Of a stretch of DNA of 64,000 bases, positions 2,021 to 50,022 are shown in pieces. Positions within the stretch are counted from its first letter, which is position 1. The number at the start of each line of letters is the position of its first letter. The notes beneath the pieces are model-generated. The model made no database searches, was not told the origin of the DNA, and was given only the letters and a program-made list of their open reading frames with translations. Source of the DNA: Eledone cirrhosa (lineage: Eukaryota); contig OZ024741.1 in the NCBI GenBank assembly GCA_964016885.1, forward strand, positions 326,740,001-326,804,000. Reading direction: 5' to 3'. The translations under genes were made by a program, and so were the position numbers.

Positions 2021-2700
<680 letters not shown>

Positions 2701-2706
2701 ATATAT

Positions 2707-2760
<54 letters not shown>

Positions 2761-2764
<4 letters not shown>

Positions 2765-5232
2765 CTTCTTTTGGGGGACTTCAATGCACATCTCAGTAAG
2801 GAGGGCAGTGAAGATCCTTGCTTGTACTTCCATAACAACACCACCCGAAATGAAAGACTACTGAGAGACTCCCTGCTGGAGGCGAACTTGATTGCGACCA
2901 ACCTAAGGTTTAGGAAGAATCCGGGGAAGATGTGGACCTACATCTCAGATATGCACCTGCCCAAGTCCCAGATTGATTTCATTCTGGTGAGGAAAAAGTG
3001 GCAGAATAGTGTTCTGAACACAGAACCATACAACTATTTCAGTACACTGGGTAGTGAACACCGGCTTATTATGAGTGAGATCCGGGTGAGCTTAAGAAAG
3101 AGCAAGGCTCAGCCTCGGAGAGCAATCTATGACTGGGGAGCTTTCAAGAAAGATGATAAGCTACAGGAGAGGTTCACAGTGGAAGTGAGGAACAGGTTCA
3201 GCGTCCTGTGTGGAGAGACGGAGGAGAGAGAGATTAGATGGACTGAGGAGAGTGTGACGAGGAGGTACGGGCACTTCACCAATGCAGTGGCGGGAGCAAG
3301 CGAAACCCTGGGGCCGAGGAAAAAGAACAAAAAGAAGCAGGTCAGCTCTGCAAATCCAAAAGTGTGTGCAGCCAGAGAACACATGAAAGCTGCCAAGGAC
3401 TAATACAATGCTGATCCTACGGAGGAGAGGATGGAGGTGATTAGGGAAGAACTCTGTACCGCTTACACTGAGGCCAGAGAGGAGGCACTGATAGAGAAGA
3501 TCAGAAGTGTGGAGAGAGCGGTTGACTGATCTGGATGTAAGGAGAGCTGGATGATCATCAACGAGATCACATGGAGGAAGAGAAGGTGTTCAAGTCAAAT
3601 CTAGGGAACAGGGCCCGAGGATAGGAAGAGGAAATGGCTAGACCATTTTAGAACCCTACTAGGAGAACCACCCTCCACAGCCCAGAGAACTGGGGAGATC
3701 AGGCGTCTGTTTGAGGAACTGGATATTGAGACAGAGCCCTTCAGCAGAGAGGAGCTTCAGAGAACGAAGAAGAGGATCAAGGAGGGCAAGGCTCATGGAG
3801 AAGATGGAGTGTCATCAGAGGTGATGAAGAGGTGTGATTTTGATGATATCATCCTGGGGTTCTGCAACCAGGCACTGGAGAAAGGAGTTGCCCCGAATCA
3901 GTGGAGGATCAGTAAATCGTCCCAGTGCCAAAGAAGGGAGATCTCTCTAACATCAACAACTACAGGGAGATCTCACTGACGTCACTTGTAGCAAAGACCC
4001 TCAACAGGATGGTTCTTAACAGGATCCAGCCAGAGATGGAGAAGAAGCTCAGGCACAACCAGAACGGTTTCAGAGAGGGAAGATCAACCACCCGTCACAT
4101 CCTGATGTTGAGGAGGATATTAGAGGGAGCTAGAGCAAAGTGCCTTCCTGCGATCATGGTTTTCATTGACTTTAGGAAGGCCTTTGATTTTCTGGACCGT
4201 CACTGCTTGATGAAGATCTTACAGGCTTATGGAATCCCCAAGAAGATAGTGGACCTGATATCACTGCTCTAGACAAGCACCAAAGCCCAAGTCATTACAC
4301 CTTTGAGATAGTGGCTGGAGTGCTCCAGGGAGATACATTGGCTCCCTACCTTTTTATCATCGTAGTGGACTATTGTATGCGCCTTGCACTGGTGAAACAC
4401 CAGGACTCTGGCTTTACTGTAGCACCGGTTCAGAGCAGGAGAGTTACGGCGAAAAAGGTATCAGATGCTGAATTTGCCGACGACATATTTTTGGTGACAA
4501 ATACAGTGAAGGAGGCAGAGGATTTGATGCAGGAGATTGAGACTGTGTCTATGAGTGTGGGGCTGAGAATGAATGAGACTAAAACAAAATATCTGATAGA
4601 GAATGTTGAGAAGCCAGAGGAGATCACTAATGTAGGCGGGTAACCGCTAGAATTGGTTCAGGACTTCCTGTATTTGGGAGCAAAGATTGGGAATACGGAA
4701 GATGATGTGGTTGAGAGGAAGAGAAAAGCCTGGGCGACGTGCCACAGCTTGATATCGATGTGGAAGTCGGACCTTCGTAAAGACCTGATAATACGCCTCT
4801 TCATTGCTGTAGTGGAGTCTGTGCTCCTGTACTGGTCTGAGACTTGGACACTGACCAAGAAACTCACTCAGATGGTGGATAGGTGCTACACGAGAATCTT
4901 GAGGATGGCTCTGAACATTAATCAGTATACACTGAGGTTGAAAAACTCAGAGCTGTATGGGAGCCTCCCAAAGGTCAGCTCAAAAGTGACACAGAGGAGA
5001 CTGAGGTTAGCTGGACATGCTCACCGACATCCAGAGTTGACATTGTACTCAGTGCTCCCATGGGAGTGCCTAAATGGACATACTGGAAGGGGAATACCAA
5101 GGTTAACGTATGCTGATGCCCTAAGGACAGACACTGGTCTGTTAGAGATGCAGGACATGGCCGCGATAATGAGGGACAGAGACCGCTGGAGAGAACTCGT
5201 CCATGGATCTCGGGAATTTTACCCGCCCTATA
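2761..5232 (+). mobile_element. 5'-truncated, disrupted RTE-clade LINE (APE endonuclease + RT)
   Basis: ORF pieces contain LLGDFNAH, SQIDFILV, GSEHRLI (APE); NYREISLTS, QNGFREGRSTT, FIDFRKAFD, GVLQGDTLAPYLF, EFADDI (RT); and RRLRLAGH. Stops and frameshifts lie between the pieces. Confidence 0.9.
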
Positions 5233-6192
5233 TCTCTCTCTAGTGTGTTACCTTTTCAACATATTGTATTTTAAAATGCCGTTTTAAAAATTCTCTTAGT
5301 GTTGTCTGAAATGTATAGCCTAACACACGCTGATGAACCTGGGTCATTCCATTTCCGTCAACAACTCACTGGCGAAACAGATCACTTTGGATTTGCACGT
5401 CTGTTATATAGTTATAGAGGTATTTAATTACGCTTTAATTTATATTTTTAATTATCGTGTCTATATTCTGCCTTTCATAGGTTGTAGATTCCATACACTG
5501 GTGGTTTTTCCCTGTTTTCATGACGGCGCACTGTATCTCTCTCTAGTGTGTTACCTTTTCAACATATTGTATTTTAAAGTGCCCATGATTTCACCTCCTT
5601 TGAGCACATTATTTACAGGGAACGGGAAGAGTCTATGGCTCCGTTAATGTATCGTGATATTTTGCTCTTTATAACAGTCTTTCTCCTCTTTCTCTGTTTG
5701 GTTGAGCACACTTCTCTGAGTGGTTTGGGGCTTCCCTTTCTAGCAGCTCGTCCCTCAGAGGCCACTGGTTCACTGCCCTTAAACAAGCTGTGACTTCCCT
5801 CTCCCATGTGGAGTTGGACGGCCTCTTTAAAAATGATTTTAGTGTTGTCTGAAATGTATAGCGTATCACACGCTGATGAACCTGGTTATTCCATTTCCAT
5901 CAACAACTCACTGGCGAAACAGATAACTTTGGATTTGTACGTCTGTTATATAGTTATAGAGATATTTATTTACGCTTTAATTTATATTTTTGATTATCGT
6001 GTCTATATTCTGCGTTTCATAGTTTGTAGATTCCATACACTGGTGGTTTTTCCGTTTTATTGCTGGCGCACTGTATCTCTCTCTAGTGTGTTACCTTTTC
6101 AACATATTGTATTTTAAAGTGCCCAGGATCTCCTCTCCTTTGAGCACATTATTTATAGGGAACGGCGAGAGTCTATGGCTCCGTTAATGTAT

Positions 6193-10731: not shown

Positions 10732-11095
10732 TGGTAATATTAATAGGCTGCCGTGTGTTTCTAAAGCGTATTGTATTTATGTATATATGTATACATAAAC
10801 ACACACACACACACAACGAAGGATCAGCCATCATGTTTGTATGTATGCATATATATATATATGTGTGTGCGTGTGTGTGTATATAAATGTGTGTTTGTGA
10901 TTATGCACAGAGGCAAAATTGTGAAGGAGAATGTTTTATAGAGATTAATAGATAAATAATAAGATGGATTTGTGTAGTTACTGTGGTTGTTTTAGCTGCT
11001 ACTGCTGTTGTGCTCGTTGATGCTGTATCAAACAAGATAACAGGCATGTACATTTGCCCACAAATCCACCTCTTCTCCACTCTCTGAATAATCAT

Positions 11096-11272
11096 GGATT
11101 GGCAGTATCGGTAGAGCGTTAGACACCCTGATTTGCAGCATAGAATTACGTCTCTTTATGGACTGAGTTCAAATCCTGCCGAGGTTAACTTTCATCCTCA
11201 CAGGGTAGATAAACTAAAGTACCAGTAATGTACTGGGTAATTGCTGGCCTTGTGCCAAAAGTAGAAACAACT
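11096..11272 (+). mobile_element. tRNA-derived SINE (window family 1)
   Basis: Box A TGGCAGTATCGG, box B GAGTTCAAATC. Similar to the copies at 17891, 35932, 36134 and 56970. Confidence 0.8.
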
Positions 11273-11445
11273 ATTCTTCTTTTTAACACTTTCCTTTCTT
11301 CTGTCAATCAATTTTATTTTTACTTCCTTCTCCCTCGCTTTCCCTGCTGCCAAATTTCTGATGAAGGATTAACGTCCAAATCTTAAACTATATTTCAAAC
11401 TAATAATATGTATTCTACTATTTTATCCGATTTTATATATATATA

Positions 11446-11525: not shown

Positions 11526-12075
11526 ATAATATATATATATAGTTCAGAATACAAAAAACAGACAACGCAGAAGTACATGTTACAAATAGTGGTTTTGCAT
11601 TCGATTCTTCCAGCTCACTAGCCTATCTCATACTCATGGCGCTAGAAATAACGGCTAGAAATAACGGCTAGAAATTTGCCAATATGAGTTTGTGTATATT
11701 GATTTTTTTTTTTTTAAATCGATACAGGCAGGCTATATTTATTTAAATTAGTTTGTTTCATTCTAGCTAATTTTTGTCTTTTACAATACAAACACTTAGG
11801 TGTTTATCATATATTAATTTATATTAACTTGTATTGCACTGCTCAGAAATGCTTCTTTCTTTGAGCTAATTAATTGTAAATGACTCTAAATATAATATAT
11901 TACTGCTCCCTCGGTTGAGCTGATTTTTAATCCCATATAAACGACTGTTATTTCTAGCGCCATGAGTATGAGATAGGCTAGTGAGCTGGAAGAGCCGAGT
12001 GCAAAACCTCGTGCGTTTTTGCTCGTAAACCAGACCTTCAACATTTTTTCGAGGTGAAGTAACCTAATTTTTCTG

Positions 12076-12210
12076 GGTACCTATTGATAAGCACAGAAAA
12101 TTGATTATTTCACTTTTATACCATCGTGTGCGAAACCTATTTTGATTTTGAGGTTCAGATTGATCTGCGGAAAAGGTTTGAATTTTGAAATTTAAATTTG
12201 TCTAGGTACC
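12076..12210 (+). ncRNA. Type I hammerhead ribozyme, U3-A8 core variant
   Basis: GGTACCTA-TTGATAA-GCACA...TGTGC-GAAA-C...long G.U-rich stem...G-TC-TAGGTACC. 8-bp helix I and 5-bp helix II. GUC site predicted after 12202. Confidence 0.8.
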
Positions 12211-12633
12211 ACGGCTATTTGCCAATATGAGTTTGTGTATATTGATTTATTATTTTTTAAATCGATACAGGCAGGCTATATTTATTTAAATTAGTTTACT
12301 TTATTCTAGCTATCTTTTGTCTTTTAAAATACAAACACTTAGGTGTTTATCATATATTAATTTATATTAACTTGTATTGCACAGCTCAGAAATGCTTCTT
12401 TCTTTGAGCTAATTAATTGTAAATGACTCTTTGAGTGTATACTCTAAATATAATATATTACTGCTCCCTCGGTTGAGCTAATTTTTAATCCCATATAAAC
12501 GGCTGTTATTTCTAGCGCCATGTGTATGAGATAGGCTAGTGAGCTGGAAGAACCGAGTGCAAAACCTCGTGAGTTTTTGCTAGCAAACCAGACCTTCAAA
12601 ATTTTTTCGAAGTGAAGTAACCTAATTTTTCTG

Positions 12634-12751
12634 GGTACCTATTGATAAGCACAGAAAATTGATTATTTCACTTTTATACCATTGTTTGCGAAACCTATAT
12701 TGATTTTGAAGATCAGGTTTGAATTTTGAAATTTAAATTTGTCTAGGTACT
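12634..12751 (+). ncRNA. Hammerhead ribozyme (U3-A8), unit 2
   Basis: Same fold. TTGATAA at 12642, GAAA at 12690, GTC at 12741-12743. Apical deletion in helix III. Confidence 0.75.
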
Positions 12752-13172
12752 ACGGCTATTTGCCAATATGAGTTTGTCTATATTGATTTATTATTTTTTA
12801 AATCGATACAGGCAGGCTATATTTATTTAATTAGTTTGTTTCATTCTAGCTAACTTTTGACTTTTACAATACAAGCACTTAGGTGTTTATAATATATTAA
12901 TTTATATTAACTTGTATTGCACGGCTCAGAAATGCTCTTTCTTTGAGCTAATTAATTGTAAATGACTCTTTGAGTATATACTCTAAATATAATATATTAC
13001 TGCTACCTCCGTTGAGCTAATTTTTAATCCCATATAAAAGGCTGTTATTTCTAGCGAAATGAGTATGAGATAGGCTATTGAGCTGGAAGAACCGAGTGCA
13101 AAACCTCGTTCGTTTGTGCTCGTAGACCAGACCTTCAACATTTTTTCTAGGTGAAGTAACCTAATTTTTCTG

Positions 13173-13306
13173 GGTACCTAGTATAAGCACAGAAAATTGA
13201 TTATTTCACTTTTATACCATCGTTTGCGAAACCTATTTTGATTTTGAGGTTCAGATTGTTCTGGGGAAAAGGTTTTAATTTTGAAATTTAAATTTGTCTA
13301 GGTACC
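13173..13306 (+). ncRNA. Hammerhead ribozyme, unit 3 (core damaged)
   Basis: Same helices, but the core reads GTATAA instead of TTGATAA. Confidence 0.6.
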
Positions 13307-13471
13307 ACGGCTATTTGCCAATATGAGTTTGTGTGTATTGATTTATTATTTTTTAAATCGATACAGGCAGGCTATATTTATTTAAATTAGTTTGTTTCAT
13401 TCTAGCTAACTTTTGTCTTTTACAATACAAACACTTAGGTGTTTATCATATATTAATTTATATTAACTTGT

Positions 13472-13519
<48 letters not shown>

Positions 13520-13632
13520 AATATACATATGTGTGCGTGAGCGCGCGTGTCTGTCTGTCTGTCTTTGTCAGTGAGTCTATGTGACGAATGCGAGTCGTTT
13601 GAATTTATTTGATTGTGTTTTGTAGAAATGTG

Positions 13633-13633
<1 letters not shown>

Positions 13634-13703
<70 letters not shown>
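13634..13703. repeat. (TAA)n microsatellite
   Basis: Directly visible. Confidence 0.95.
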
Positions 13704-13705
<2 letters not shown>

Positions 13706-13839
13706 GTACTAACACTAGACAAGGGAGAGGCTAACAAAAGATATAAATAGACTGACATAGTGACTCGGTCAAACGTTAACGGCTATGGCAATGAAGAGGC
13801 AACTTCAAGAAAAAGTATATTACATTATTAATAATAATT

Positions 13840-16800
13840 TCTTTCTCGGCCACGAAGGGCTCACATTAAGGAACCACTCATGATAATAACAATTTAAAAA
13901 ACCCCAAAAGAAAAACCCGTGACCAATGAAATACCGGGATGGCGGCCGGCGGGGAATAGCCGTGTCTCTAGGGGAGTACGACCCCTCTAGTCTTGGTTGA
14001 CACTCGTCCTAGAAGTGGTAACACGAAATGATTACCCCTTGGCGGTTAAGGATAAAACGCAACAAAATAAAGCCAATGTCAAATGATAAAATCTCATACC
14101 GGATCGGCCTTCACCCGGGTCAAAAAGGGCCGCGTCCTTCAGAGAGGAACCAGACTGGGGTCGAACTATCAGCTAATGGTTCAAACCTTCCCATCAATTC
14201 GGAGCTGGAGACCTCCCATAACCGGAATTCTCCTACTGTTGTCCCTCCCTGCTCACCACCAAGAAATCCAAAGAAAAAGAGAGAGAAATGGTCAAGGGAA
14301 GACAATAAAGAAGTGCTTAAGGCTTTCTACACTGCCATGTACTACCCATCAAATAGATCGAATACAGAACAGACTTATATCAATGGGAAAAAGAAACATC
14401 CCGAAAATAGAGACTATATTGACAGTAACAAACTAGCCAATATACGAATAAATATTGTAAAGAAAAAGTTACTAACTGATATAGAAATTGATCAGATCAA
14501 GCAATTAGCTCAAAGTCAGCGAAGGGAAAATGAAACGTGTCAGTGAAAACGAGGTAAATTGTAACATTTCAAATCCCAGAGCTGGGGCGGAATGACTGAC
14601 AGCAGAACAAATTAAAGAAAGAATCTAAACAGTGGAAGGAGTGTATGCTAAAGATGAAACTCAAAATGAAAAAAAATGAGATCGTCAATGATAAAGAAAT
14701 GAATGAGAATGAACTCGCCGACTTGAAGAATGAAATTATGATCAAATATATGAAAATGAAAGAATCTGACATGGGGGAACGAGACACTCTCCCTAAGATC
14801 CAGAACTCCAAACAAAACCAAAGGATAATACACAAGACTAACATAACTCTCAAAAACATTATCATCACAAATATAGTCAATATTATTGATCTAAATCATC
14901 TCTATTATGCATCGGCTAAAGTCACCACTCACTTATGTGTAGTGAAAATGAATAAAACAAAGGAATCCCCCCTCAAAAACCTACTTGGAACATCAATCGC
15001 CAAATAAACCTTCTCCGGTTTAGCAAACTATAAAGTAGGTGAAGATGTTAAACAAACTAAACTTAGAAAATTGAAAAGAAGAAGATACAGTATAAAATCA
15101 ACAAGTGGCATAGACATGCTGATAGAAACAATCAAGCAAAAAGTGTCGGTTAAAGCTGCTCGTATAAGCCACTTTAAAAAACGATCTAGATTCTATAAGG
15201 ACAATAATATGTTCAAAAACAACCAAACTTCTACAGAAAAATTGGCAAGTCAACAATAACTGCTAAATCAATATTACCCAAGAAGGAAGTGCAAGAATTC
15301 TGGGAAAAGATCTGGGCCGAAGAAAAAGTTCATAATATACATGCCACATGGATAGACAGACAAATGAAAGATACAGCTCATCTTGAGGAACAAACATGGG
15401 AAAATATTACAGTTGATCTTCTGCATTTAGCTCTTAGAAAATCCAGCAAATGGAAATCCCCAGGGAAAGACAAAATACCATATTTTTGGATAAATGCTTT
15501 CACAGAGTCTCATGAGCTGTTAGCCCAACTTTACAATGAAATGGTTAAGGAGCCAGAAAAGATACCATCATGGCTAGTAAACGGCATTACATTCCTATTT
15601 CCAAAGAATGATGAGACAAACAATCCCCCAAATTACAGACGGATAACTTGCTTGACCACAATGTATTAAATTTTAACATCAGTTCCAACTGAATCTACAT
15701 ATGATCACCTGAGGACAAATGATCTATTTCCCAATGATCAGAAAGGGTGTAAACGAGGCTTATATGGCTGTAAGGATCAGCTTTTGGTTAACAACATAAT
15801 ACTGGAAGATTGTCATAATAGACACAAACATCTATCAATTACTTGGATAGATTACAAAAAAGCATTCGATTGTTTGCCACACAGTTGGATTGAAAACTGT
15901 TTAGAGATTTTCAAAATATCTCCCGTTGTCAGGAGGTTCCTGTCATTCAGTATGAAGACATGGAAAACGACAATCATGTTGAATAGTGAAAACAAATCAC
16001 TAGAAGCTGGAGAAGTTAATATTAATTGTGGAATTTTTCAGGGTGACTCTTTATCACCGCTTTTATTCTGCATCGCACTTATACTATTAAGTAAAATGCT
16101 CAATGATGTAAACATGGATATAAAGTCTATGACAAAACCATTAATCACTTGCTCTACATGGATGACCTGAAACTATTTGCAAAAAAATGATAAGCAATTG
16201 CAAGGGCTATTATCCACTGTGAAGCAGTTCAGTGATAATATTAAGATGGAGATTTGAATAGACAAATGAGCCAAAGCCACGTTCACCAGAGGAAAGCTGC
16301 TGAAAAGTTCAGCCATTAATCTTGATCGGGGGAATATGATAAGAGAACTTGATCAAGAGGAAACTTACAGATATCTAAGTGTTTGTGAAGGAGACGGAAT
16401 CAAGCACTCGACAATGAGGGAAAGGATGAGGAAGGAATGTTACCGCGGAGTAAGAGCAATGTTAAGAACGGAATTGAATGCAAGGAATAGGATCAATGCC
16501 TTAAACACGCTTGCCATACCAGTAGTAACCTACAGTTTCAATGTCATCAACTGGTCAAGCACAGAGATCCGTAGGCTCGATACCAAAATTAGAAATTATT
16601 TAAACATGCACAGAATTCATCACCCTAAGGCATATACAAATAGATATATCTCCCTAGGAAAGAAGGAGGATGTGGTTTAATCCAGTTAGATATTGCTTTG
16701 AAAACTGCAACAATTGGATTATCTACATATCTAAGGGAATTACATGATTGGATGATTAAACTCGTTTTGAAACATAAAAGCATCAAAAGATCATATTCTA

Positions 16801-17840
16801 TTATAAAAGATGCACAACGATACAGTAATGAACTACACATTTCAGAAGTTCCATTTACTGCTGAAATGAAAAACACTGGAAACGCAAAACAGGTAAAAGT
16901 AACTGCAAAGAAAGAACTGCTACAGAAACTTGCTAAGAAATGGCAAAACAGCCTCTGTATGGAAAATACCCAGAAAGAGCTAACAATCCTGATGTTGACA
17001 ACACTTTAACCCATCAGTGGTTGGCATCCTCTGGCCTGAAATCGGAGACTGAAGGATTAATTATATCAGCACAAAATTAGTGTCTGCCAACAAAAAATTA
17101 TCAAGCCAACATAATAAAACTTGGATGCAACCCATTATGCTGTGTATGTAAAAAACAACCAGAGACCATTGATCATATAATTTCAATGTGCAGTCTAACC
17201 GAATACCTAAACAGGCACCACAGAACTGCACAATACACACATTGGATAATGTATAAGCATTTTGACCGCCCCATTAAAAGAATTGGTTGGAGCATCAACC
17301 ACCCCCCGTACTTGAAAAAGATCACATCTCAATCTTGTAGAACTTTAGCATCCAAACAGACCGAAAAATAGATGCAAATAGACCTGATATAATACTGAAG
17401 GACTTTAAAAAGAGGGTATGTCTGCTAAGTGATATGTCCGTCCCAATAGACAAGAATGTATCTATAAAAACATTTGAAAAATTGAACAAGTATAAAGACC
17501 TAGGGATAGAAATTGGACAAATGTGGGAATTGAGAACTAAAACAATACCAGTGGTTGTAGGCGCTCTATGAATGACACCTCAGGGGTCTAATGATTACTT
17601 ATCGCAAATCCCAGGAAACCCGCTTATAGGAGAAATACAAAAGATAGTACTAATGGGAACTTCCCATATACCAAGGAAGATTATGTTAATATACGTACAT
17701 CACAAGTCTAAACACCTAAAGATGCATGTGTGTGTATGTATGTTCTTTCTTGAACATGGCGGACCTTGTTGTCTCTTGAGGTCACTGGTTGTGACTTGGT
17801 GATTACTCGTATGAACATAAAGCAAGATAAATGCAACTGT
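13840..17840 (+). mobile_element. Near full-length disrupted Dong/R4-type non-LTR retrotransposon (RT + CCHC + RLE)
   Basis: N-terminal KREKWSRED; WKSPGKDKI, NYRRITCL, WIDYKKAFD, GIFQGDSLSPLLF and YMDDLK (shifted); C-x2-C...ETIDHI..C near 17140; NRPDII..D..VP..EK..KY.DL. Flanked by (TAA)n, the known Dong target. Confidence 0.85.
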
Positions 17841-19724: not shown

Positions 19725-20600
<876 letters not shown>

Positions 20601-34960: not shown

Positions 34961-35931
34961 ACGCTAGGAATAAATAGCTCCAAGTGTTTAAAATTTTACA
35001 ACTTGTTCATGGTGAAATCACATATACGAGTGTGAGCTAAATAGCTGAATAGTTAATAGGCTGACGGTGAATGGGGGATGCTAGTGCTGTGAAATCCTGC
35101 ATGCATTAATTTCAACTCTTCTTATTAATGACGACATTATTTTTTTCCAGGGTCTCTGTTGAAAAAAACCCACCGCATTTGGTCATTCCATGAGAGTATC
35201 TTGGTCAGCTTATGAACTCTTCAGCCGATCCTCGTTTCATATTGCTATCATGGTATACTCCATCCTAATTCATGCATTCTGTTCGGTGCTAATGTAGTTC
35301 TGGTTCTTAGAATTGATACATTAGATACGTTGCTTCGTTTGTAATTACTACTCACATATCTGAGATGCTGATATGCTCTTTTGAATCGATACACCCTGTC
35401 CCCGAGTATCGTAAGTATGGTGGAGCCACAAAGGCATTCGACAATAAAATACAACTTCAAAGAGAAGCTCATAATGAGAATGTTTGAGCTTGCCATTATG
35501 CCGGCGCAATACTATCCCTTGCTTTAGTAATGAATACAACAATTAGACTTATGAATATATTACATATAATTCTGTTTTATGAAATGTAAACCAGCTTTTC
35601 ACAACCTTTACTTCCTTGAGGCCCATTTTTGGTGTCGAAACAATTTCACGCCCACATAAGCAAAACATAGAAATTCCATGTAACAGGAAATACATTTTAT
35701 TTACAAAAGCAAAATACAGTAGTAAATATAAATCCTGAGCAAATAACTAAATTGCTCCTGGTATCTATGTATCAGCTTGCCAATAGAAAAAAAAAAGAAT
35801 TTCAAACCACCCATCTTCCTTCAGCCAAGTCCTGCCCATTTTGAAATCTCTCATGTCAAATGAGAGACATAAGGGCCTACGTTGAGAATCATTGATTTAA
35901 ACGATGTTTTGTCATTTTGAGTGATATATAA

Positions 35932-36314
35932 TAATTGTTTCTACTTTAGGCACAAGGCCAACAATTACCCAGTGGATTACTGGTACTTTATTTTATCGAT
36001 CCCGTAAGGATGAAAGGCAAAGTCAACCTCGGTGGGATTTGAATATAGATCGTAAAGGGACGTAACTATGCTGGAAAGCATGGCGTACGACCCTTTCCCA
36101 TACTGACAATCCACCGCCATTTTGATGATATATAATAATTGTTTCTACTTTAGGCACAAGGCCAGCAATTATCCAGTGCATTACTGGTACTTTATTTTAT
36201 CGACCCCGTAAGGATGAAAGGCAAAGTCAACCTCGGCGGGATTTGAACTCAGATCGTAAAGGGACGTAACTATGCTGGAAAGCATGGCGTCCGACCCTCT
36301 ACCGATACTGCCAA
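35932..36314 (-). mobile_element. Tandem dimer of tRNA-derived SINE (family 1)
   Basis: Two ~190 bp reverse-complement copies (35932-36119 and 36134-36314). Each is preceded by the same TTTTGA.TGATATATAATAATT flank. Confidence 0.85.
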
Positions 36315-45388: not shown

Positions 45389-47383
<1,995 letters not shown>

Positions 47384-47471: not shown

Positions 47472-48896
47472 TTAAACCAGCCATTTCATTTCGCTTCTCT
47501 CTAATCGGTTGTTTATTTGCGGTTGCAGTTGTTTGATAAGAAGCGCTTCCTTAATACGTAACGTGCCGACGTTTCTTTCAGTCGCTAGAATTGTGACAAT
47601 GGGCCTTCCGTCTTTGTTTCCGCATTTGTCTATGTGTTTCCAGAAAGGCGAGGCCCTGGTTTTAATGTGTTCCTTGATCCGGATGTGCAAAGGTCGAATT
47701 GTGCTACCTATGTAGTATTGGTTGCACCTGTCACATTCTATCTTATACACGACGTATGTGGGTAGGCAACAGTTAGCATGGCGTATCGGGCAGTCTCTGA
47801 GGGAGCATGCGTCAGTAGATTTTTCGGGTTTTCTGGAGAGGCATCTTCGCAGGGAGGGGCCCGAGTGGGCCAGGTGGATGTCGAGGCCCTCCCTCCGTAT
47901 AGCCTTGCGGATAGCGTTGGTGGTTTTCTCGCCCAGGTGTGGCATTTTAAGGAAGCACTTGCCTTGTGTGCTTCTCTGTCTCTTGCGTCTGGTGTCTCCT
48001 ATTCTGTCTGTGATCGAGGTAGGGTACCCGTTTGTCTCCAGCACCTCGAGGAATCGCTTGGTATGAGTGACACCACTGGCGGGATCGCTGCATCTGTTTG
48101 TGATTCGCGCGATCTCGTTCGTGATGTATCCTCTTTTGGCACTGTTAGGGAGGGCGGACTTGTAGTGAACGAATAGGTCCCTGCAGGCTGCCTTTCTGTA
48201 GAAGTTGCAGTGGATCCCTCCTTGTTCTGTGATGTTGATCCGGAAGTAGAGGAGGGCAAGTGACCCGTCTTCGTTGGGGTGTTCAACACTGAAGTCAATG
48301 TTCTCGTCCGTGTTGTTGAACGTCTCATAGATTCTGTTCGCCGTGTCTTGGGAAGATGTGAGGATGAGGACATCGACCACGTATCTTGAGAAAAAGGCTA
48401 CGGCGTTGGGGTGGCAGGCGTTGAGAGCCTTTCGTTCGAGGTTGTCCATGTAGGAGATCGCTAGCACACCTGATAGACTTGATCCCATGGGCAATCCCGA
48501 GGTTTGTTGGTATATTTGGTCAAGGAATCCGAAGTAGGTGTTGTCGACGACGATGGATAGGAGTTGGTGGATGTCAGTGGTGGTGAGCCCGAAGCAGTGT
48601 AGGTCGGTGGATTGGACGCGTTCCATTAGTATATTGACGGCCGGGAGTGCCGGGACCGAGGTGTAGAGAGCGACTACATCAAGGCTGAAGGCATATCTGT
48701 TATTCTTTCTGGTGTCGGGATCCATTTGATGCAGGCGCTTCAACACCTCCTCGGAGCTGTTAACGTGTCGCGGCAAGGTGTCTAAGATGGGTTTGAGTAT
48801 TCTGGCTAGGAGCCATGAAATTTTGTAGAGTGGTCTCTCCACGCTCGATATGATGGGCCTGATTTTCAGGTCGGGTCCCTGTTTGTGTGTTTTCAC
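47472..48896 (-). pseudogene. PLE RT + GIY-YIG (catalytic YVDD reads YVVD)
   Basis: IRPIISS, FSLDVVALYTSV, YQQTSGLPMGSSLS, SRYVVDVLI and VVYKIECDRCNQYYIGST..RIKEH..WKH (CCHH). Upstream SDKG lies in another frame. Confidence 0.85.
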
Positions 48897-50022
48897 GAGG
48901 TGGTAGAAGGCGGGTAGTCTGCTGTTTCTCGTGAGGAGGTTGTATCTCAGCTTCTTCGGGAGCTTCCGCAGGTCGCAGATGTTGGTCCAGGCGGTTTTGA
49001 TGTGTTCTTCTATCTGCGCGGGCGTGATTCCCGTGACCTTGGAGTAGAGGTTGTCATCGTCAAGGTGTTGTACGCCTCTCTGCTGATGACGCAGAATTAT
49101 TTTCCCTTGTCGGAGGGGAGATAGATGAGGTTCTTCGATTTTAGGTTGGAGAGAGTGTTGAGATGAGATTTGGTGAGGTTATGTGTTGTGCGTGTGTGTG
49201 TGTGTTTGTGAAGTATATCCGAGATAGAGTGTTTAAGCCTGATGAGTTTGGTGTCGAGTTCGTGGTTGGTGGGTGGGGGGGGTGGAGAGGGTTGTCGGGG
49301 TGGTAAGCACATACGTCGTGTATAAGATAGAATGTGACAGGTGCAACCAATACTACATAGGTAGCACAGTTCGACCTTTGCACATCCGGATCAAGGAACA
49401 CATTAAAACCAGGGCCTCGTGTTTCCGGAAACACATAGACAAATGCGGAAACAAAGACGGAAGGCCCATTGTCACAATTCTAGCGACTGAAAGAAACGTC
49501 GGCACGTTAGGTATTAAGGAAGCGCTTCTTATCAAACAACTGCAACCGCAAATAAACAACAGATTAGAGAGAAGCGAAATGAAATGGCTGGTTTAAGTTA
49601 ACAAGCGATGCAACAACACACAACACACGCACACACACACACAAACACGCAAACGAGACAACTACACACACACACACACACACGCACACACACAGTAGCA
49701 TTCCACCATACGAACATACTACACTGCCAGTACAGATGAACAAGGCAACAACACACGCACACACACACACACACACACACACTCAAGCGAGACAACAACA
49801 CACGCACACACAATCACAGTAACATTTAACAAACAGGCAGAGAATGGACTGACAGCTAGCGCCATCCCACTCCCTCATTCGGACGCTGACCTCTGTACGA
49901 CCGACCCCATTTCACGCGCACGCGCGCTCGGCCGAATACCTCAGATATTCAAATCAACAGACAGCGAAAGACGCATTCTGAGTTGTCCGACAGACAACCT
50001 TCTCCTCCACCCCGGAAAAAAA

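Follow-up and report, generated by a model that had tools for sequence, protein, structure and literature searches.

An abundant non-coding hammerhead retrozyme of Eledone cirrhosa with two-armed Penelope-type insertions and a partial 5′-end barrier beside its predicted cleavage site

Animal non-LTR retrozymes are described, in the available text of two accounts, as non-coding, low-GC tandem units that carry one type I hammerhead each and are dispersed as monomers to multimers; the same sources propose that they are non-autonomous derivatives of Penelope-like elements (PLEs) (PMC7229834; bioRxiv 10.64898/2026.07.22.740005). PLEs in turn, in the available portions of the papers on them, display partial tandems, an inverted 5′ copy, a tail at one end and AT/TA targets (PMC8557442; PMC3846280), and the role of the hammerhead in Penelope-type elements is given there as unclear (PMC8557442). 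In vitro work on an anole PLE reports, in the sections accessible, a tail lying between two internal start sites of the reverse transcriptase (RT), nicking and extension of both target strands, and insertion for which cleavage is dispensable (PMC11167929). With regard to the ribozyme, the accessible text of Perreault et al., 2011 (PMC3088659) presents U3-A8 covariation as natural and active in vitro, with U4C and a weak stem II tolerated. Parts of further papers record the U3-A8 variant in Schistosoma PLEs (PMC4209133) and describe fungal and protist PLE hammerheads whose helix III is large (PMC4209133; PMC8557442; PMC3846280; PMC11167929).

The locus considered here lies in a window of 64,000 nucleotides, the whole stretch of DNA that was analysed (Eledone cirrhosa, GenBank assembly GCA_964016885.1, contig OZ024741.1, positions 326,740,001 to 326,804,000 of the forward strand), and is one insertion of an abundant non-coding hammerhead repeat, a non-LTR retrozyme. 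This dispersed repeat shares with the described animal retrozymes all of the features listed above and is a new member of that group, for which expression as linear and circular RNA would be expected. Its 555-nt unit compares with 170–400 nt in the available text of PMC7229834 and falls inside the 51–972 bp given in that of bioRxiv 10.64898/2026.07.22.740005. It further differs from the animal retrozymes, as far as those texts describe them, in its U3-A8 core and its helix III of about 26 bp, and in that no matching pLTR was found among the 30 GIY-YIG loci compared. The partial tandems, inverted 5′ copies, one-end tail and AT/TA targets are shared with PLEs, as are the two proposed internal RT start sites; however, compared with PLEs that bear pLTR hammerheads, as the accessible sections present them, the repeat has no ORF, a tail of 81 nt rather than 30–40, and a full-size rather than a minimal hammerhead. 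An autonomous PLE would carry an ORF with RT and GIY-YIG domains; no ORF of at least 120 aa was found across 11591–13475, and none within the unit or in phase with it.

The array comprises about 3.3 units of 541–555 bp, and every unit bears a hammerhead motif of type I. Its direct part occupies 11674–13475 on the forward strand and consists of unit 1, 5′-truncated at +15 from the predicted cut (11674–12202), unit 2, measuring 541 bp from cut to cut (12203–12743), unit 3 of 555 bp (12744–13298), and a 177-bp partial unit 4 (13299–13475), which ends at the family's fixed short 3′ end (unit position ~175) and abuts the (TA)n target microsatellite at 13476 (13476–13530; TRF). To its left, a piece that corresponds to unit positions of about 300–363 lies inverted, on the reverse strand, at 11591–11652, or to 11655 by match; blastn aligned 11591–11655 with 11947–12008, 12502–12566 and 13041–13105 at 91–95% identity. 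The junction (11641–11674; located from the sequence, TRF and motif positions) is a 13-nt microduplication in which TRF counted 2.7 copies of GCTAGAAATAACG, bearing out the proposal of the initial annotation that an inverted unit piece is joined through a duplicated microhomology. The same annotation had the direct array begin with ACGGCTA at about 11664; this motif (+9..+15 from the cut) is indeed present there, as well as at 11651, but four extra nucleotides (GAAA) intervene between its second copy and the remainder of the array, whose continuous run begins only at +15/+16 after the predicted cut (11674/11675). The junction could have arisen if copying switched repeatedly from the inverted piece to unit positions +9..+15 and back, via AC, GCTA and A/AT microhomologies, and the inverted 65-nt piece would be either the remnant of a second arm after a later deletion or a short templated insert. 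As its inverted arm is only a 65-nt remnant, the window copy is atypical of the family.

Three hammerhead motifs, all on the forward strand, were located in the array. The first (12076–12210; predicted cut 12202/12203) is of type I and is the only one that is fully intact; the second (12634–12751) has an intact core, giving two consecutive intact cores (units 1–2), and a 17-nt deletion in helix III; and the third (13173–13306) has a broken core, with position 3 changed and one core base lost. In unit 1, helix I is formed by GGTACCTA (12076–83) and TAGGTACC (12203–10) and reaches +12 with a 3-bp extension, the core TTGATAA (UUGAUAA, with U3 and A8) lies at 12084–90, GAAA at 12132–35 and GTC (GUC) at 12200–02, and a long, G.U-rich helix III of about 65 nt is capped by what we take to be a UNCG-type loop. 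The 8-bp helix I, the U3-A8 core and the long G.U-rich helix III first annotated were recovered, and the 149-nt hammerhead stretch folds with a z-score of –3.5 (0 of 200 shuffles as stable). The annotated loop II of ~30 nt folds into a further hairpin; the 5-bp helix II beside it is private to unit 1, that of the family being about 3 bp.

The unit is dispersed through the 3.0-Gb genome, and the family comprises hundreds to thousands of copies: a first look returned 2658 candidates, and exact patterns gave 118, 491 and 692 matches, as against 0 for reversed controls. In an alignment of 58 copies taken across subfamilies, pairing reaches 99% in helix I (extension included), where 4 pairs have changed on both sides, and 97% over the 26 pairs of helix III, where all changes affect one side only; helix II is weak, 10.1–11.1 being unpaired in 20 copies. 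The 3–8 pair is U-A in 25 of these copies, C-G in 22, U-G in 11 and unpaired in 0. Likewise, the first 100 of the 692 matches, for which positions 3 and 8 had been left free, show 90 U-A, 7 U-G, 3 C-G and 0 C-A, while G8 is present in 70 of 73 C3 matches and C3-G8 in 77 of 77 U4C matches. Across 189 cores, G5 and A6 are each retained in 188 and A9 in 189, with position 7 variable, and GTC is found in 177 of 200 rows. Since related sequences may beat shuffles even without structure, we place weight on several distinct fixed double changes. The core order, the helices with covariation and the paired 3–8 position are those of a type I hammerhead, a reading well supported by covariation, with cleavage itself being predicted. 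Inactivity of the RNA combined with a lack of helix covariation had been named at the outset as a point that would count against the hammerhead; both the doubly changed helix I pairs and the covarying 3–8 pair speak to its presence.

For the mapping of ends, we used only insertions picked by their 3′ patterns, to avoid a bias towards full units; the sample of 2658 candidates was excluded because its query favoured such units. The sample combined the 100 matches listed of the 118 with the 100 listed of the 491 (the latter all from one chromosome), covered alignments of at least 85% identity from all but the oldest subfamily, and retained 133 insertions after removal of 3 segmental duplicates. 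Among the matches listed, these 133 mapped insertions comprise 71 that are head-to-head and two-armed, 51 single-armed, 4 of other forms and 7 without a patterned terminal arm. In 69 of the 71 two-armed insertions, the two arms terminate at different unit positions, ~175 and ~256, which lie 81 nt apart, and the oldest subfamily keeps this 81-nt offset; an A/T-rich flank adjoins 188 of 202 arms (again among the matches listed). The arms have a median length of 254 nt and exceed one unit in 53 of 202 cases. Either arm may be the one that reaches further (30 versus 29 of the 69), which rules out a simple fold-back from the long-tail arm. Of alleles that are otherwise private, 78 are shared within one insertion, 46 of these across both arms, and 677 are unshared; the alleles common to both arms point to one template lineage for the two, be it a circle or a multimer. 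A-to-I editing as the origin of the G.U pairs was considered and rejected, as the private alleles show no significant A>G strand bias (p=0.19–0.86). The inverted junctions are spread all along the unit, and since the second arm meets the target at a fixed 3′ end of its own, it reflects separate priming rather than a switch at an RNA end. The inversion is the family's standard two-armed Penelope-type integration rather than a one-off switch at the end of an RNA. Neither two-armed insertions nor a mapping of 5′ ends relative to the cut appears in the available text of the retrozyme descriptions (PMC7229834; bioRxiv 10.64898/2026.07.22.740005).

Before the 5′ ends were counted, three corrections were made by hand, in which two arms were reassigned and one was removed. 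Ends fall in +1..+30 in 32 of 160 passes, as against 39 of 608 in the four neighbouring 30-nt windows (p=1.6 × 10–6, the window being post hoc); with 11 symmetric fold-back joins removed, the figures are 22/146 versus 39/572 (p=0.003). Counted by insertion, 26/101 end at +1..+30, compared with 14/104, 12/107, 8/91 and 5/87. In the same sample the ends peak at +14..+20, with 4 of the 32 in +1..+8 and 0 at +1, and 128 of the 160 passes (80%) continue across the predicted cut. About one in five copying passes likely stops just after the predicted cut, and the rest read through. The link between 5′ ends and the GUC site suggested in the initial annotation is therefore seen as an excess just 3′ of the cut but not as ends at the cut itself. 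Other hot spots of 5′ ends lie at unit positions 226–258 (19 of 69 passes) and 121–140; the former, about one unit upstream and at the long-tail priming site, would fit a circular template on which cDNA synthesis runs into the priming duplex, or else the annealing of TA-like sequence.

Taking these observations together, we hold with considerable confidence that the repeat is a ~555-nt non-coding non-LTR retrozyme, likely copied into (TA)n by a borrowed Penelope-like RT/GIY-YIG endonuclease. Under this reading, the PLE protein would nick both (TA)n strands and prime cDNA at unit positions 256 and 175, with RNA from one template lineage serving both internal start sites. Each arm would then run a variable distance, usually across the ribozyme site, and the two cDNAs would be joined by microhomology or short overlaps, or by repeated template switching. 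As most passes cross the ribozyme site, the usual template would be a sealed circle or an uncut multimer. In a minority of passes (an excess of ~14 points over a 6% background), copying would stop at the ribozyme, most likely on cut or nicked RNA, and the stopped ends may be trimmed to +8..+24 during joining.

The cause of this excess is where the principal competing explanation arises. Stalling of the RT at the folded ribozyme, or palindrome-assisted joining at +14..+24, might produce it in place of cleavage, a possibility that we consider substantial yet short of probable. The peak at +14..+20 lies immediately 3′ of the extended helix I, as stalling would predict, and 5 of the 11 symmetric joins fall at +9..+20 on a near-palindrome, as expected of palindrome-assisted joining; moreover, the accessible sections of PMC11167929 present uncut RNA as the main substrate, with no reads beginning at the cut. 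Against this stand the long helix III, which lies just upstream and gives no excess, and a comparison between core types in a third sample (98 rows from the 100 listed of 180 matches). Here, 7 of 34 ends in the canonical-core group lay in –2..+24, as did 3 of 27 in the U4C group and 0 of 25 in the U3-G8/C10.1 group. The last group has a C-C mismatch at 10.1–11.1, but matches the canonical-core group in the length of helix I (8 bp) and in the palindrome; it differs from that group at p=0.017 (1/26 and p=0.12 with the window extended to +30). This contrast, drawn with post hoc windows, leads us to favour cleavage over stalling; the U3-G8/A10.1 group nevertheless shows the barrier (3/9) despite a weak-looking core.

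The mechanism first proposed for the locus, in which RT would generally copy a multimeric RNA up to a 5′ end made by the ribozyme, the inversion then resulting from a template switch, is unlikely and is largely refuted as a general rule. It draws on a real excess after the cut, and the window copy does start at +9/+15; however, the passes crossing the cut, the scatter of inverted junctions and the separate priming of the second arm all run counter to it. With the peak at +14..+20, only 4 of the 32 ends in +1..+8 and 128 of 160 passes crossing, run-off from cut RNA would account for a minority of copies at most. For the window copy this mechanism is inseparable from our preferred explanation: the copy probably belongs to the minority that stops at a ribozyme-linked barrier, and that its stop was due to cleavage as such we suggest more tentatively, as a little under probable. 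We regard as highly improbable that the repeat is a satellite, or consists of decayed pLTR fragments, amplified at the DNA level with a hammerhead-like motif under no selection. An Rfam scan yielded 0 matches at gathering thresholds, and the window units diverge by 7–9% with private changes, both of which would suit such an origin, but the short dispersed insertions have fixed ends and TA targets, compensatory changes were fixed in successive subfamilies, and G5, A6 and A9 hardly vary, in contrast to position 7.

We also looked for the autonomous element from which a borrowed enzyme might come. A check of 30 GIY-YIG loci (of 150 listed, among 10595 candidates) and of about 330 loci of the family recovered no autonomous element that shares sequence with the unit, and alignment scores of the unit against the 30 GIY-YIG loci stayed within those of shuffles. 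One GIY-YIG PLE family (loci L338–L365) carries a minimal U3-A8 hammerhead in 13 of the 30 loci, ~450 nt downstream of the domain, conserved with a GUA site and a palindromic CCGG helix III, and has two TA-flanked 3′ ends; copies of the retrozyme family adjoin the 3′ TA run of that PLE in 3 of the 30 loci (L340, L358 and L365). This family was rejected as the partner, having no sequence in common with the unit. Two same-strand hammerheads 2.5 kb apart proved to be a segmental duplication without an ORF, and the tblastn candidates were only neighbouring PLE fragments.

Several other elements were noted in the window. A Penelope-type ORF with RVT_1 and GIY-YIG matches lies on the reverse strand at 47472–49178 and ends at a TA run ((TA)n at 45389–47381), and its 3′ part recurs in inverted orientation at about 49340–49600; a GIY-YIG fragment between two TA runs (19949–20476, forward strand) is probably a 5′-truncated PLE of another family. 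Left of the array, at about 11340–11445, a minimal-hammerhead-like motif (CTGATGA, with a short hairpin) occurs in a piece that ends at a TA run and is probably another PLE-type fragment. On the right, directly after (TAA)n at 13634–13704, is a decayed non-LTR retrotransposon (about 13705–17000, forward strand; RVT_1 at 15670–16167), presumably akin to the TAA-targeting R4/Dong elements. LINE fragments with Exo_endo_phos and RVT_1 matches lie at 2642–5243 on the forward strand, and a short interspersed repeat, whose head gives the impression of being tRNA-like, occurs at about 11095–11270 and 35913–36314 (a 204-bp dimer by TRF).

The history of the core was reconstructed from a tree of 69 of 129 copies (at most 5 per core type; 447 columns, with masking of the core and of 10.1) in which the compact subfamily served as the root. 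This oldest subfamily has terminal branches of 0.048, as against 0.014–0.028, and a compact, canonical hammerhead, in which helix III measures 6 bp and the fold of minimum energy is that of the ribozyme; many of its copies (loci L308–L337) show U4A (CAGAAGA) and a further compensated helix I variant. The long helix III consists of two degenerate direct copies (26–28 of 37 positions identical) of a self-complementary segment. All 33 U3-A8 copies form one clade (UFBoot 100), nested in a U3-G8/A10.1 grade (clade of 40, UFBoot 100) that itself lies within C3-G8 grades, the inner branches of which are poorly supported; U3-G8 has a second origin, with C10.1, and G10.1 was regained in the U3-A8 clade. 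Template switching between subfamilies could distort this tree. The ribozyme would thus derive from a compact C3-G8 hammerhead whose helix III was lengthened by tandem duplication, with the 3–8 pair passing from C-G through U-G to U-A. Subfamilies with impaired-looking cores (U4C, or a broken 10.1–11.1) still reached dozens of copies. It is conceivable, though rather doubtful, that the family as a whole preserves, in fossil form, the passage of a ribozyme across a fitness valley, from C3-G8 via impaired C3/C4 and U3-G8 cores with a broken 10.1–11.1 to a repaired U3-A8/G10.1 core with the largest expansion. The share of copies stopping at the cut would then be a readout of in vivo cleavage in each subfamily, and the insertions would stem from sealed circles and cut RNA through a Penelope enzyme with two fixed starts.

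The U3-A8 variant has already been published; the present analysis contributes the ordered C-G, U-G, U-A series and the measured partial barrier to 5′ ends. In the variants presented in the accessible text of PMC3088659 we find a point of comparison: here, a single lineage contains C-G, U-G and U-A, each as an amplified subfamily, and their order can be resolved. A literature search, with supplements and most subscription papers outside its scope, returned no C-G > U-G > U-A path within a family and no mapping of 5′ ends relative to the cut. The family offers two handles, neither of which alters how the element is classed. One is the excess of cDNA ends at the ribozyme, which can be measured and varies among subfamilies with different cores; the other is an ordered set of natural core variants (C-G, U-G and U-A) suited to parallel assay.
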